From positions 66,386-130,385 of the IMG/VR virus record IMGVR_UViG_3300025085_002722: 64,000 nt of DNA, one strand, 5' to 3'. Both the position numbers and the translations under genes were made by a program. The stretch comes from a virus. Positions 13,725 through 30,543 of the stretch are shown here, in pieces. The notes beneath the pieces were generated by a model. That model did not search any database. It was not told the DNA's origin and worked only from the letters and a program-made list of their open reading frames with translations. How positions within the stretch are numbered: position 1 is the stretch's first letter; each line of letters begins with the position of its first letter.

Positions 13725-13916
13725 TTACTTCTTTTTCTTCTTAGATTTGTTACCCCAATTTTTAGCACCTACTTTACGGCACTTAACTAAGGCTCCACTT
13801 GCGTATGCACTAGGCCACACTTTATATCTGGATTTTACTTTGTGATAGCAGGCGTCTTTTTCGCCTGCCGCTTCGTCGAATTGTTCTTCTGTAATATACC
13901 TAGAGTCGCTTATCTT
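13725..13916 (-). CDS. start-less 63-codon module in the -1 frame of the upstream gene (frameshift extension)
   Basis: Reads KISDSRYITEEQFDEAAGEKDACYHKVKSRYKVWPSAYASGALVKCRKVGAKNWGNKSKKKKK*; fills the whole gap; no usable start; TAG immediately upstream of the A9 run in this frame. Confidence 0.75.
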   Translation of the reverse strand, partial: KISDSRYITEEQFDEAAGEKDACYHKVKSRYKVWPSAYASGALVKCRKVGAKNWGNKSKKKKK

Positions 13917-14665
13917 TTTTTTTGACTATTTCTAAAGTTTGCTCTAGTAATTGGACTGTTAATTGGATTTTTGCTTACCTTTGTATTGATGCTTGCCGGC
14001 TTATTGATGCTTGCCGGCTCACCTAGTTCAATACCGCCTTTTGGTTGTTGCATAGTTTTGCCTGCTCTTTTATATGCTGGTTCATCATACTTTTTGTAAT
14101 CCTGCTTAGGCTTGTTTAAGACTTTTTCGCCTTTTGCTTTATTCTGTGCGTTTTGGAATTCCATTTGATACTTAACTAAGTTTTGCTCAACTGCGGCATA
14201 AGTCTTATTAGGATGATTTTGAACTATATACTGTCTAAATGCGTCGTGATCAAAAACTATGTTTCTTTGAGAGTCTGCTCTTGCTTGTCTTTGAGCAACG
14301 GCAGTTTGTCTTTGATTATACATTCCTGTATCGTCTGCTTCGCCTACCATTTTACCACGCATTTTATTTGGGGATTCATGTCCAGTAGTAGGTTTTACTT
14401 TCATAGTGTTTTTGTCACTAGTCTTTGCATACTTTTTACTTGCATATTTTTCTTTTAATTTGCTTAATATTGGATCGTTATTTTCCACTTCGTCTTCTCC
14501 TAACTTTGATAAGTCAATACTTAAAGGACCTTTTGGCTTTTTAAAATTTTTGTGTTTTTTGCCTGAGACAATCTTCTCAATCTTCTTTGCTTTTCTTACA
14601 CGAGGCATTTCACCACCGTTATTATTGAGTCCTTGTAATCCGTTTAGTGCCTCTTGAATGTTCAT
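13910..14665 (-). CDS. basic modular phage protein ending at an A9 slippery run
   Basis: True start MNIQEAL (ATG 14665, 5 nt after ATAAATA at 14671-14677); P..MRGKMVGE module; ends CAA AAA AAA AGA TAA. Confidence 0.7.
   Translation of the reverse strand: MNIQEALNGLQGLNNNGGEMPRVRKAKKIEKIVSGKKHKNFKKPKGPLSIDLSKLGEDEVENNDPILSKLKEKYASKKYAKTSDKNTMKVKPTTGHESPNKMRGKMVGEADDTGMYNQRQTAVAQRQARADSQRNIVFDHDAFRQYIVQNHPNKTYAAVEQNLVKYQMEFQNAQNKAKGEKVLNKPKQDYKKYDEPAYKRAGKTMQQPKGGIELGEPASINKPASINTKVSKNPINSPITRANFRNSQKKR
13984..14019. repeat. 18-bp tandem duplication within CDS (PASIN repeated at 6-aa period)
   Basis: tattgatgcttgccggct twice. Confidence 0.85.
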
Positions 14666-26720: not shown

Positions 26721-26748
26721 ATGTGTATATTATCCGATAAATATGTGT

Positions 26749-28350
26749 ATGTTATTTGGTATTCTAACATTAATTACTGCACTGGCTATTGCCGGTGTTG
26801 CCGCATGGTTTTCCATTGTCGGCTTAATGCTACTATTTAGTGGTATGCCCCTGAGTATAGCCGTAATGGCTGGCACATTAGAAGTAGGTAAACTCCTAAC
26901 TGCTAGTTGGCTGTACAGATACTGGAACGAAACCAGCATAATGTTGCGTACCTACCTCACGACCGCAGTTGTTGTCTTAATGATTGTTACCAGCATAGGT
27001 ATTTTTGGATATTTGAGTAAAGCCGCTTCTGATCAAGCAGGAGATATAGGCGATGCTGTAGCAGTAGTTGAAAGAATCGACGCTCAAATAGATAGAGAAG
27101 AAAACAAAATTGCATTAATTGAAGATAGAATACTAGGCATAGGCGGTAGTGTTGATATTAGTGCCAGCATAGAAGCACAAGAAGATATTAGAGACGGTGC
27201 TTGGGCAAGAGTACAAGGCGATATAGATTACAACCAAGAGCAGATCGAGAACGTTAGAGAACAACTCAAAGTAGACATTGCTCAACAAGATAGTAGATTA
27301 GCAGAATTAGACAAAGCAGTAAATGAACTTAGAGCAAAAGGTGTAGAAGTTGTTACACTAGATGAGGGCGGAGCATTTAGAAGTGCTGAAACCGAAAAGA
27401 TAGATTACATCGCACAGGCAAATGAACTTAGGGCAAGCCAACAAGCAGAACGTGATGAAATAAAAGCAGAAAAACAAAGTTTACGTGATACAGCAACAGC
27501 AGATATAAATGTATTCCAAACTGCTATTGACAATTATAGACAACAAGCACAAGACGATATAAACGGTGCTAACGCAGAAATAAACAGATTGCGTAATCAA
27601 AGTTCAACACAGGCAGATGATAACATAAACAAGATAAATGCTTTTAACGAGGACATCGACGCCATTTACGCCAACATAGTAACACTTAAAGACGAGAAAT
27701 TTGACGCAGAAAGCAAGATAAGAAACTTAGACAGAGAAGTTGGGCCAATCAAATACTTGGCACAATTAATTTACGGCAGTGAAGAAAGAGATGTATTAGA
27801 TCAGGCAATACGTTTATTCATATTAATGTTAGTGTTTGTGTTTGATCCACTAGCAGTTATGTTAGTTATTGCGGCTAACCAAACATTATTACGTTATGGT
27901 ATTAACTTAGAAAGCAGTGGACCACCAATGCCGCCTAAGGAACCAGAGCCAGAGCCAGAAGTAGAAGTAGAAGAAATAACAGACAAGGATTACGAGTTGC
28001 CACGAGACCCAGAAGGCGACCCAGGTAGTTTCTTTGATAAACCAAGTGCAGTAGATGATGCCGCTGATGTAATGAGCGGGTACGATGGAAGAGACAAAAC
28101 ATTTTTTGAAAGTATAAACGAACCTATTGTAAACATAGACAATCAAAAAACAGAAGACATAGTAAATCAAATTGAGAAAACTGAAAAACTAGAAGACGAC
28201 CTTAACAAAATATTAGGCGGCAAGACAAAAGCACAATTAATGCAGATGGCATTAGATGGTGGAATAGAATTACCTGCACAATTAAGCAAAGCAGAAATGG
28301 TTGCAAACGTTATACAAAATTACGACAGTATCACCAAAAAAAAAATTTAA
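26749..28350 (+). CDS. membrane protein with long coiled coil; ends at an A10 slippery run
   Basis: Three N-terminal TM helices, LEVGKL, GIFGYLSKA, heptads, EVGPIKY, VFDPLAV TM; start ATG 26749, 5 nt after ATAAATA. Confidence 0.8.
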   Translation: MLFGILTLITALAIAGVAAWFSIVGLMLLFSGMPLSIAVMAGTLEVGKLLTASWLYRYWNETSIMLRTYLTTAVVVLMIVTSIGIFGYLSKAASDQAGDIGDAVAVVERIDAQIDREENKIALIEDRILGIGGSVDISASIEAQEDIRDGAWARVQGDIDYNQEQIENVREQLKVDIAQQDSRLAELDKAVNELRAKGVEVVTLDEGGAFRSAETEKIDYIAQANELRASQQAERDEIKAEKQSLRDTATADINVFQTAIDNYRQQAQDDINGANAEINRLRNQSSTQADDNINKINAFNEDIDAIYANIVTLKDEKFDAESKIRNLDREVGPIKYLAQLIYGSEERDVLDQAIRLFILMLVFVFDPLAVMLVIAANQTLLRYGINLESSGPPMPPKEPEPEPEVEVEEITDKDYELPRDPEGDPGSFFDKPSAVDDAADVMSGYDGRDKTFFESINEPIVNIDNQKTEDIVNQIEKTEKLEDDLNKILGGKTKAQLMQMALDGGIELPAQLSKAEMVANVIQNYDSITKKKI

Positions 28351-28859
28351 AAATAGACAAACTAGAAACTGAATTAAAAGATTCAGAATATAGGTATCAA
28401 AAGCAATTAGACGAATTAAACGATAAGTACAATAGAACACTAGAAAGTCTCGAAGATGCCAAGAATTCGCTTGACATAAAACCAAAAGAAGTTATAATAG
28501 AAAAAGAAATCATTAAGGAAGTAATTAAGGAGGTTCCTGTTGAGGTCGAGAAAATTGTCGAAGTTGAACGCAAGGTCGAGGTCCCAAAGGAGGTTGTGGT
28601 CACTCGCGAAGTCGAAGTCCCAGGACCCGAGCGTATTGTTGAGGTCCCCGGACCAGAACGAATCGTGGAACGAATCGTGGAAGTCGAAGTCCCCGGACCA
28701 GAAAGAATAGTCGAAAAGATTGTCGAAGTACCAGTAGAATCTAAACCCAAACCCAAAGTACCCAACAGTTGGACATTTACTCCAAAGAAAGATCTGCCAG
28801 TAGATAACGCAGATAATCCTACAGATAGTAAATACTACATTAAGAAACCTAAAAGTTAA
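28344..28859 (+). CDS. start-less -1-frame continuation (coiled coil plus V/E/P repeats)
   Basis: Reads NLKIDKLETELKDSEYRYQKQLDELNDKYNRTLESLEDAKNSLDIKPKEVIIEKEIIKEV...; first possible start is GTG 28596, inside the repeats. Confidence 0.7.
   Translation, partial: NLKIDKLETELKDSEYRYQKQLDELNDKYNRTLESLEDAKNSLDIKPKEVIIEKEIIKEVIKEVPVEVEKIVEVERKVEVPKEVVVTREVEVPGPERIVEVPGPERIVERIVEVEVPGPERIVEKIVEVPVESKPKPKVPNSWTFTPKKDLPVDNADNPTDSKYYIKKPKS
28485..28739 (+). repeat. VEVPGPERIV / EKIVEV protein repeats (articulin/alveolin-like)
   Basis: EVPGPERIV three times plus flanking (E/K)(I/V)VEV units, with varied synonymous codons. Confidence 0.85.
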
Positions 28860-30097
28860 TGACAGACGACAACAACACAGATAAAAGTTCACTATCTTGT
28901 AATTTTTGTGGTAAGCACAGGAACGAAGTTAATAAACTTGTAGCAGGTCCAGATGTTTACATTTGCAACGAATGTATAGAATTATCATACAAAATCATAG
29001 ACGATGAGTTCACCGAAGAAGATCTGCAATTAGATAATATTGCCGACCCTAAAGAGATACGTGAATACTTGGACAAATATATTACTGGTCAAGATTATGC
29101 TAAAAAAGTTTTAAGTGTAAGTGCATACAATCATTACAAACGGATTGAGTCACCTGTAGTAGATGATGTTGAAATAGAAAAAAGCAATATACTTATGCTA
29201 GGACCATCTGGTGTTGGTAAAACATTACTTGCAAAAACATTATCTAAAAAACTAAAAGTGCCATTTACAATAGCAGATGCTACAACACTAACTGAAGCAG
29301 GTTATGTTGGTGAAGATGCAGAAAGTGTACTAGAACGTTTAATACAAGCCGCTAATGGAGATATAACATTAGCAGAAAAAGGCATAGTGTTTATAGACGA
29401 AGTTGATAAAAAGGCCCGTAGCAGTGAATCTAACACGTCTACACGTGATGTTAGTGGCGAGGGTGTGCAACAAGCACTCTTAAGATTAATAGAGGGCACA
29501 ACAACGTATATTAATGTTGGTTCCAATAAATTATCAAGTGAAAAAATTGAATTCAGTACTGAAAACATTCTGTTCATATTGGGCGGTGCATTTGTTGGAT
29601 TAGATAAAGTGATTAAGGCCAGGCTCAACAAGAAAAATAAAATAGGATTCAATTCTGCACTTGACAACGAAAACGATTTAGACAAAGATGTTTATTTACA
29701 TGCCACACACGAAGATATTATACAATACGGTTTGATACCAGAACTAGTTGGTAGACTTCCTGTGTTGTCAGGTTTAACAGACTTAGATGTAAGCGACTTA
29801 ACACACATACAGAAAGAAAGTAAAAATAGTGTAAGCAATCAAGTCAAAGCATTGTATAAACTTGAAGGTATTGATGTAGGCTTTACAGATAATTTTTATA
29901 AAATTGTATCAAAAGAAGCAATTAAATTAAAAACAGGTGCCAGAGGAATACGAAGTGTATTAGAACAATTTTTTATTGAACTAACATATAACATTACAGA
30001 TCTTAAGGCACAAAAAGTCAAAGAAATTTACATTGATAATCTTGATCATGAAACTATTTCATATATCAAAGAGGTTGACAATGAAGAAGATAACTAG
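28859..30097 (+). CDS. clpX: ATP-dependent Clp protease ATP-binding subunit ClpX
   Basis: CNFC..CNEC zinc domain, GPSGVGKT, DATTLTEAGYVGED, RDVSGEGVQQALL, IGF loop, TGARG. Confidence 0.96.
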   Translation: MTDDNNTDKSSLSCNFCGKHRNEVNKLVAGPDVYICNECIELSYKIIDDEFTEEDLQLDNIADPKEIREYLDKYITGQDYAKKVLSVSAYNHYKRIESPVVDDVEIEKSNILMLGPSGVGKTLLAKTLSKKLKVPFTIADATTLTEAGYVGEDAESVLERLIQAANGDITLAEKGIVFIDEVDKKARSSESNTSTRDVSGEGVQQALLRLIEGTTTYINVGSNKLSSEKIEFSTENILFILGGAFVGLDKVIKARLNKKNKIGFNSALDNENDLDKDVYLHATHEDIIQYGLIPELVGRLPVLSGLTDLDVSDLTHIQKESKNSVSNQVKALYKLEGIDVGFTDNFYKIVSKEAIKLKTGARGIRSVLEQFFIELTYNITDLKAQKVKEIYIDNLDHETISYIKEVDNEEDN

Positions 30098-30129: not shown

Positions 30130-30543
30130 TTGAGTAATAAATTTAAAGGCAACGATATCAAGAAAGGATATCAATATGATCGCAAAAAGAAGCAAGACTT
30201 CAAAAAGAAGTACGAGCCACGTGATCCATTTGATTCTGCAATATATGTTCGCAATGGTAATGTAGACCAAGCAATTAGAACTCTTAAGAAAAAGTTATTA
30301 AAAGATAACTTTCAAAAAGAACTTGCTAAAAGAGAGTACTACGAAAAGCCATGTGAAAAACGCAAACGCAAAAAAGCACAAGGCGTAAAAAAAGCACAGA
30401 AATCTTTTCGTGATAAAGTAATGAGAGGTGAAGCATTGCCTCCTGTTAGAGGTGGTCAAAAACATCTTAAAGGTAAAAGATCACTGAACAAATATCGTGC
30501 AACTAAGAGGCTCCTACAACAAAGAGATTGGGCAAGGAAGTAA
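30130..30543 (+). CDS. rpsU: 30S ribosomal protein bS21 with N- and C-terminal extensions
   Basis: VRNGNVDQAIRTLKKK...ELAKREYYEKPCEKRKRKK core; TTG start with SD. Confidence 0.85.
   Translation: MSNKFKGNDIKKGYQYDRKKKQDFKKKYEPRDPFDSAIYVRNGNVDQAIRTLKKKLLKDNFQKELAKREYYEKPCEKRKRKKAQGVKKAQKSFRDKVMRGEALPPVRGGQKHLKGKRSLNKYRATKRLLQQRDWARK

Follow-up and report, generated by a model that had tools for sequence, protein, structure and literature searches.

A conserved poly-A run in a marine T4-like phage gene, a probable slip site for short and long forms of a membrane protein

The window analysed here is a stretch of 64,000 nucleotides (nt) from an uncultured marine T4-like phage (bases 66386-130385 of the 130,385-base IMG/VR virus record IMGVR_UViG_3300025085_002722; G+C 36%), for which the nearest named phage is Pelagibacter phage Mosig, family Kyanoviridae. 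Directly upstream of its clpX homologue lies a gene for a predicted membrane-anchored coiled-coil protein (the "anchor"), which stops one codon past a run of ten A's (A10), while the -1 frame behind the run stays open up to clpX (the "tail"). Taken together, the sequences of this junction and of its relatives indicate that the run is probably a conserved slip site which yields two isoforms from one gene, a short one of 533 amino acids (aa) and a long one of 704 aa, with transcriptional slippage as the favoured route.

The A10 run and the gene ending around it (ACC AAA AAA AAA ATT TAA) were as an initial annotation of the window had reported them, and its description of the continuation was equally accurate: from AAT 28344 the -1 frame comprises 171 codons up to the TAATG of clpX, with no start before 28596. 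This frame is open from 28206, its first ATG, GTG or TTG is the GTG at 28596, and the first 83 codons of the tail are without a canonical start. At the other end of the gene, the open reading frame (ORF) 26743..28350 encodes 535 aa, or 533 aa when counted from ATG 26749. The latter ATG appears the likelier start, since its Met is common to 13/13 aligned sequences (three of which reach one or two residues further upstream) and an ATAAATA box lies 5 nt ahead of it. The late promoter that had been proposed beside this start codon was found as that box, which is promoter-like by sequence and recurs 5-9 nt ahead of the start codon in 18 of 19 relatives.

Substitution patterns point to the tail as a coding sequence. 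Between the window and an 80%-identical relative (L005), the tail had a ratio of nonsynonymous to synonymous substitution rates (dN/dS) of 0.156, the upstream ORF one of 0.163 and clpX one of 0.087; for the first 83 codons of the tail, i.e., the part without a start, it was 0.27. Sorted by codon position in the -1 frame (1/2/3), the 55 differences from L005 within the tail numbered 14/8/33, and the two remaining frames contained 11-20 stops across the same interval. Among the strains of a 2024 study, four of the six changes directly past the TAA were synonymous in the -1 frame. By these measures the -1 frame is under purifying selection, like the upstream ORF. Moreover, the -1 frame of L005 opens just nine codons ahead of the junction, so the frame change must occur at or beside the run. 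These observations support a tail that is true coding sequence and would be reachable solely via a frame change at the A run.

The length of the run was constant when searched with a pattern tolerant of A7 to A13 between conserved flanks: it was exactly A10 in all 11 contigs matched (two viral and nine metagenomic, with at least five flank variants). The A run was also covered by Logan contigs assembled from three further DNA sequencing runs, in which minor alleles are invisible: one from another sample (2,351 nt) was identical to the window over 27900-28631 (732 bases), while those of two runs from the 2024 study carried 6 and 37 substitutions and zero indel in the run. The sequencing runs holding the stretch were marine metagenomes from 16 studies, which are perhaps not all independent. 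At the protein level, 4,558 relatives were found at E <= 0.001, and 116 of the best 120 (73-97% identity) ended in ..ITKKKI; the other four were two fusions of 703-704 aa, one A9-like reading and one with another ending. The two fused forms of the window's clade (P0005 and P0108) match the predicted junction exactly, and both are singletons on contigs of 3.3-3.6 kilobases (kb), as all three length-variant clusters (two fused, one A9-like) are singletons on contigs of 3.3-4.8 kb. A second search across the junction and tail retrieved zero further fusion of the window's clade. The A10 run is no assembly slip. An A11 run, which the initial annotation had named as telling against its reading, appears neither in the assemblies of this strain nor in the contigs of near strains, and the check it had named, whether homologues end in KKK plus a stop with a conserved -1 continuation, gave the ..ITKKKI endings and the selection on the -1 tail.

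Relative loci, gathered with the anchor and with the tail as queries, presented the same two protein parts in four arrangements: i) a split layout (25 distinct loci), where the tail has a gene of its own, read in the +1 frame from an ATG that overlaps the upstream stop by 11-26 nt; ii) a fused layout (seven loci, about four lineages), where both parts form a single ORF of 630-650 aa; iii) the window's own layout, the A10 clade; and iv) an A9 clade (L047/L089, L081-L084). Duplicates, eight loci cut by contig ends, 37 more distant loci without a recognisable tail and L062 (a very long branch) were left out; L098-L100, which were among eight loci flagged as -1, are ordinary split genes whose scored match lay further downstream, and were counted as split. 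At its junction the A9 clade has TCC-A9-GAC TAG, with the tail in a -1 frame that opens seven codons ahead of the stop and is without a start; the dN/dS of this tail was 0.11-0.17 at a synonymous divergence (dS) of 0.27-0.68. This state holds in 5/5 contigs, and 39 of the 40 protein matches to the anchor C-terminus of this clade end in ..KKK plus D, V or G, none of them fused; a contig scan for the ..KKKV variant returned one distant locus only. One A9-clade anchor (P0160) has been assigned to genome bins of bacteria ("bacterium", "Hellea sp."), probably as phage DNA binned with its host or a bystander.

The Lys-rich junction is homologous across layouts: the ..ITKKK|NLK.. of the window corresponds to ..ESAS-KKK|RLE.. 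of the A9 clade and to ..ESAS-(E/Q)KKR.. of the fused genes. In all seven fused genes the post-membrane region holds exactly one unbroken A9, which sits at the junction, in frame (xAA AAA AAA AGA); from that point a stop comes up within 0-3 codons in the +1 frame and within 8-22 in the -1 frame. The initial annotation would have been undermined by in-frame fusions without a slippery run in close relatives, but the close relatives retain the run, and the in-frame fusions of more distant relatives hold an A9 at the same place, which argues for a slip site, not against it. Given the residues and the codon usage of each gene, an unbroken A9 is expected by chance at 0.16-0.32 per lineage; a run of at least nine occurred in 11/11 single-unit genes (seven fused, three A9, one A10) versus 3/25 split ones (37 distinct loci); and because lineages share ancestry, both the chance of 0.0007 computed for five independent lineages and the Fisher p = 6e-7 overstate the significance. 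A run that is present in all single-unit genes and in few split ones goes with a need to make both forms from one unit. The best reading of these comparisons is that the A9/A10 run is a conserved, family-wide feature of the anchor-tail boundary. As a separate test of selection, the lack of any AAG interruption in the run was rejected, for the loci had been chosen via a pattern that requires the run.

Besides this shared ancestry, several points weigh against a conserved slip site served by transcriptional slippage. The lack of AAG interruptions in the run carries no information: of 30 columns with an AAA Lys codon in the window, 22 have AAA in each of the five clade members, which gives three consecutive ones an empirical chance of 0.39. 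A tail protein standing on its own is a workable state, given that the window's tail finds its closest matches (70-73% identity) in separate genes. The junction sequences come from assembled contigs, which lose rare variants, and the single RNA contig spans 28581-28900, outside the A run. The two singleton fused forms and the one A9-like form, known as protein entries, leave room for some true length variation in DNA. Finally, transcriptional and ribosomal slippage are inseparable by sequence alone.

As to the history of the run, trees of residues 1-400 placed the A10 clade (support 99-100) within a starred clade of 13 rows that also contains fused genes, and the A9 rows elsewhere; a single clade for all frameshifted rows was rejected (AU, the approximately unbiased test, p = 3e-114), the tree needing two changes. 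Independent origins of the A10 and A9 junctions were our first reading, which was softened since L047 looks recombinant and fused genes also carry the run. In L047 (= L089, IMGVR_UViG_3300037573_000241), anchor residues 1-400 group with the split-type L044, L037 and L039, and from the junction through the tail it shares 73% identity with the A9-clade L081, which looks like recombination inside the gene. For these two reasons the run itself may be old, with only its frame relation changed, at least twice, via indels beside it.

Other accounts of the junction were weighed against the slip site. A tolerated frameshift is unlikely; on this account an indel beside an existing A run would have broken a fused gene, unselected background slippage on the A9/A10 would leak enough long protein, the ratio of the forms would serve no function, and the short form would be a by-product. 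Fused relatives carry the run in frame, so a 1-nt indel beside it gives the observed state exactly, the A10 clade groups with fused genes in the starred clade, and slippage at long A runs is an established way of rescuing frameshifts in bacteria. Yet changes between A10 and A11 are frequent mutations, and the out-of-frame state nevertheless persists in 116/120 and 39/40 clusters at dS 0.3-1.2; moreover, in-frame fusions retain the unbroken run beyond what codon usage predicts, and split relatives show a tail-less anchor to be a normal product.

Re-initiation past the TAA, with the Ile codon at 28353-28355 serving as a non-canonical start for a separate tail protein, is quite improbable. That codon lies 3 nt past the stop, the 25 distinct split relatives give their tail an ATG of its own overlapping the upstream stop, and it is such separate genes that the window's tail resembles most. 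The Ile codon, on the other hand, varies among strains (ATA, ATT, ATC), all of which are very weak start codons; no Shine-Dalgarno-like sequence is visible; the A9 clade is without a near-cognate start close to its junction; and re-initiation accounts neither for the conservation of the run nor for the fusions that occur naturally.

Phase variation at the DNA level, with replication slippage toggling the run between A10 (tail off) and A11 (tail on), has a still smaller probability. Homopolymers are indel hot spots, and two fused A11-like clusters and one A9-like cluster stand among the best 120 relatives. At a phase-variable locus, however, both on and off lengths would be common, whereas the contigs were uniformly A10, the variants were all singletons, and the ratio of A10 to A11-like to A9-like among the best 120 was 116:2:1, i.e., one fixed state plus noise and no balanced switch, as far as contigs, blind to minor alleles, can tell. 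A sequencing or assembly error hiding an A11 run and a simple fused gene has next to no probability, for although homopolymer length is error-prone on some platforms, the same length came out of independent IMG/VR, JGI, ENA and Logan assemblies, of 2017 and 2024 studies, and of diverged strains.

The A10 run also stands out against the background of the record. As initially noted, the A10 and a T9 at 13915-13923 are the only A/T runs of at least nine in the window, and the same holds for the entire 130,385-base record. Among its 254 sense-strand A runs of at least six, three are followed by a 0-frame stop within two codons after at least 100 codons: the A10, the A9 read from the T9, and an A8 outside the window, with open -1 frames of 171, 63 and 27 codons, respectively; no other candidate is as long as these three. 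The A8 is at about 38311 of the record's own numbering, on the minus strand, 28 kb ahead of the window start. The -1 frame was shorter than 20 codons behind 41 of the 46 listed A runs of 7 or 8, and ran for 27, 31, 57, 83 and exactly 19 codons behind the other five. Runs of 8 and 9 were rarer (observed 4 and 1) than expected from a log-linear fit to lengths 3-7 (17 and 5.6). A genome scan for A9+ runs with a stop and an open -1 frame, a check named beforehand, returned only the A10 and A9 loci in 130 kb.

How the run would work can be outlined as follows. Most expression would end at the TAA one codon past the run and give the 533-aa short isoform, while a fraction would change frame inside the run and give the 704-aa long isoform with the junction ..T-K-K-K-N-L-K-I-D... 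In the favoured version, host RNA polymerase, starting from the putative T4-type late promoter, would add one untemplated A, so that the transcript carries A11 in place of A10. An identical protein would result if ribosomes shifted by -1 on the heptamer A_AAA_AAA (28338-28344; 0-frame codons AAA AAA, next codon after the shift AAT 28344), and this may contribute. A runs longer than seven are a recognised realignment signal (PMC3711429), and runs of 9-10 A are classic polymerase slip sites (PMC3711429, PMC5009743); the run here, located exactly at the frame junction, has that length, and the interval open to the shift, from the opening of the -1 frame to the 0-frame stop, spans nine codons in L005 and seven in the A9 clade. 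Folding of 28300-28440 revealed no stimulatory RNA structure (z = -1.09), the sole local helix being an A/U-rich hairpin of seven base pairs that starts about 24 nt past the run, and inspection by eye of the 20 nt upstream revealed no purine-rich, GGAG-like element of the Shine-Dalgarno type. The lack of both makes transcriptional slippage the more likely route, and we give it a modest preference over a purely ribosomal shift. Thus of the -1 recoding that had been claimed, the selected -1-frame tail and the retained run stand, while a ribosomal -1 shift is not needed, as an extra A in the mRNA gives the same protein.

Likewise, for the claimed short and long isoforms, the run, its conservation, the selection on the -1 frame and the start-less tail were seen directly, and from them we infer the production of both products, that is, the slip, its efficiency and a requirement for each isoform. 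In every arrangement where a single expression unit holds anchor and tail, the run would supply both forms: in fused relatives the long form would be the default and a slip would truncate it, while in the window the short form would be the default and a slip would extend it.

The coordinates of the gene and its parts are collected in Table 1.

Table 1. Features of the anchor-tail gene and of the adjoining clpX homologue, in window coordinates.
Feature	Position	Strand	Basis
ATAAATA box, T4-type late-promoter-like	26737..26743	+	read in sequence; 5 nt 5' of ATG 26749
0-frame ORF, predicted short isoform	26749..28350	+	ORF list and alignment; ends AAA AAA AAA ATT TAA
Pro/Glu-rich linker, residues 391-409, after the fourth hydrophobic helix	27919..27975	+	translation
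Helix-extended-helix-like stretch, residues 490-525, short-form C-terminus, directly before the A run	28216..28323	+	translation
A10 run, putative slip site	28336..28345	+	read in sequence; 0-frame codons ACC AAA AAA AAA ATT TAA
TAA stop of the predicted short isoform, one codon past the run	28348..28350	+	sequence, ORF list
-1-frame extension, 171 codons and stop 28857-28859	28344..28859	+	translation
Heptad/coiled-coil part of the extension	28344-28475	+	translation
V/E/K/P repeat part of the extension	28479-28739	+	translation
Conserved C-terminal motif part of the extension	28740-28856	+	translation
clpX homologue, ATG at 28859 overlapping the stop of the extension (TAATG)	28859..30097	+	Pfam zf-C4_ClpX E 9.9e-18, AAA_2 E 1.5e-29

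The nature of the protein was approached by structure prediction. An AlphaFold2 model of residues 1-395 (mean predicted local distance difference test score, pLDDT, of 73) contained three N-terminal hydrophobic helices (2-30, 34-57 and 64 onward), followed by an antiparallel coiled-coil hairpin of great length, whose tip at 199-219 is a beta-hairpin, and by a fourth hydrophobic helix at 347-382. This model is best explained by an inner-membrane-anchored coiled-coil protein with a C-terminal tail facing the cytoplasm or the periplasm, the loop charges being too few to set the membrane topology. Pfam and PHROGs held no family above cut-off for the anchor protein, the ESM Atlas returned unnamed viral clusters only, and the structure search of BFVD returned uncharacterised phage proteins; a Foldseek search of the PDB had no hit at E <= 0.001, the weaker ones being generic coiled-coil arms (SMC, Rad50, chemoreceptors and long helical toxin shafts). 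With no chaperone or tail match in Pfam or PHROGs, and with clpX and an S21 gene as neighbours, the protein showed no sign of being a phage tail assembly chaperone. The stretch at 28216..28323, which we take to be of the HeH (helix-extended-helix) type, overlaps a weak match of residues 472-523 to the PHROG endonuclease VII family (E 0.002). It precedes the run in the window's clade, and a comparable stretch stands near the tail end in other relatives; this difference in position suggests that modules 3' of the membrane anchor have been shuffled between clades.

The tail is rich in E (17%), V (15%), K (14%) and P (10%), and includes tandem units of 45 nt (x1.9, at 28644-28729) and 12 nt (x2.2). 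The IMCp (alveolin-articulin) repeats of PF12314 were tried and rejected as its family: the 171-aa tail reached 7.8 bits (E 5.7) against a gathering cut-off of 21.1, and two longer tails gave no match, so that the resemblance seems one of composition only. A cable-bacterium protein (P0165), named "IMCp domain-containing" by its source, has repeats of the VEVPGPER type and 69% identity over 30% of the query.

Whether fused, frameshifted or a separate gene, the tail ends in a conserved W..LP..acidic..Y..K-K motif, and clpX begins at most 35 nt from its stop in 30/30 distinct relatives, abutting or overlapping it in about half. This arrangement suggests a functional link of the tail with the phage ClpX. 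A complex prediction for docking on the zinc-binding domain, with two copies of ClpX 1-70 and the last 45 tail residues (11-row alignments), scored 0.02 versus a mark of 0.32, which speaks neither for nor against binding. A wider proposal, which we regard as doubtful, is that the A run is an ancient dosing device which, whatever the frame of the tail, sets a fixed ratio of tail-less to tailed anchor; the C-terminal peptide of the tail would dock on or feed the phage ClpX, the slip would control membrane-tied ClpX activity, and the family would have passed more than once among three states: a fusion that slips, a frameshifted gene that slips, and two separate genes with the run lost. Adjoining clpX, and two genes 3' of the slip site, is a homologue of ribosomal protein S21 (PF01165, E 1.7e-14) at 30130-30543.

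Poly-A slippage is already known, and it has not previously been described in this gene family: a literature search, with supplementary files outside its scope, found no paper on a slip site in this family or in pelagimyophages. One point of comparison is dnaX, with its tau and gamma products, which in the Thermus thermophilus type depend on poly-A slippage. In E. coli dnaX a ribosomal -1 shift takes place on A_AAA_AAG between an upstream Shine-Dalgarno-like element and a downstream hairpin; neither of these stimulators was found at the window's site. As in dnaX, a Lys-coding A run at a domain boundary would give a long and a short product, and the fused phage genes with an in-frame A9 mirror the layout of dnaX, where the long form is the default and the short one arises by a slip. 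Unlike dnaX, a cellular replication gene, the window's gene would have the short form as its default. A10 runs in the dnaX of several species have been read as programmed transcriptional realignment (PMC3711429).

The closest worked case comes from bacterial type VI secretion. In tssM1 of Citrobacter rodentium, an A11 stands before the stop, mRNAs carry 10-15 A's, about 20% of the protein is full-length and both forms are required (PMC4256274). Like tssM1 and Yersinia pseudotuberculosis tssM3 (PMC4256274), the phage gene encodes a predicted inner-membrane protein, has a stop soon after a long A run and a C-terminal domain in another frame, and is without a nearby RNA structure or Shine-Dalgarno sequence; in the bacterial genes, transcripts with untemplated A's are back in frame, so that two length variants are made. 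The differences are that the secretion gene encodes an unrelated protein, that its A11 has the stop 28 nt on versus 3 nt here, that slippage and the need for both forms are experimental there and deduced here, and that the phage family adds in-frame and split versions. Polymerase slippage is likewise reported for Shigella type III secretion genes (spa13, mxiE and others), with a C-terminal extension in 25-30% of products (PMC5009743). The event predicted here would likewise be homopolymer slippage to an extended protein, but the Shigella genes lie on a virulence plasmid, have other run contexts and encode unrelated proteins.

Within tailed phages, a known recoding case is that of the tail assembly chaperone, whose -1 frameshift (G/GT) was reportedly described by Xu, Hendrix and Duda in 2004, a work cited in PMC5009743 and PMC8163748. 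There, as predicted for the window's site, a -1 shift close to the 3' end of a late gene extends a set share of the protein molecules at the C-terminus. The G/GT shift, however, is ribosomal and takes place on a short heptamer, in the gene that immediately precedes the one for the tape measure, while the site described here is a run of 9-10 A in a membrane-protein gene before clpX. In the passages covered, the Mosig paper (PMC8163748) mentions frameshifting for tail genes and S21 only. The anchor-tail family may thus add a recoding case outside the tail-assembly genes of tailed phages. It offers one pair of protein parts in four natural layouts (split, fused, and frameshifted at either A9 or A10), and so suits questions about the gain and loss of slip sites and about recoding as a substitute for gene fission. 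In annotation the gene is divided or cut short by gene callers: the 116 short-form entries among the best 120 represent the anchor alone, and the 171-codon tail is left without a gene model. A simple annotation rule (at least nine A's, a stop within two codons, a long open -1 frame) flags just two loci in 130 kb when at least 60 codons are required.

The second of these loci, an A9 at 13923-13915 on the minus strand, ends ORF 14665..13910 as CAA AAA AAA AGA TAA. An A9 one codon before a stop with an open -1 frame behind it had been proposed here and was borne out: the -1 frame (13725-13923, minus strand) runs for 63 codons and encodes a small basic, Cys-containing module, and this gene too has an ATAAATA box 5 nt before its start. 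The further suggestion that the A10 and A9 sites form one shared poly-A device was not supported. Three relatives of the A9 gene (L078-L080; 69-82% identical) are without the run and the appended module and lead directly into the next gene; as both elements are lacking in 3/3 relatives, the two sites do not share a history. The A9 site looks recent rather than conserved.

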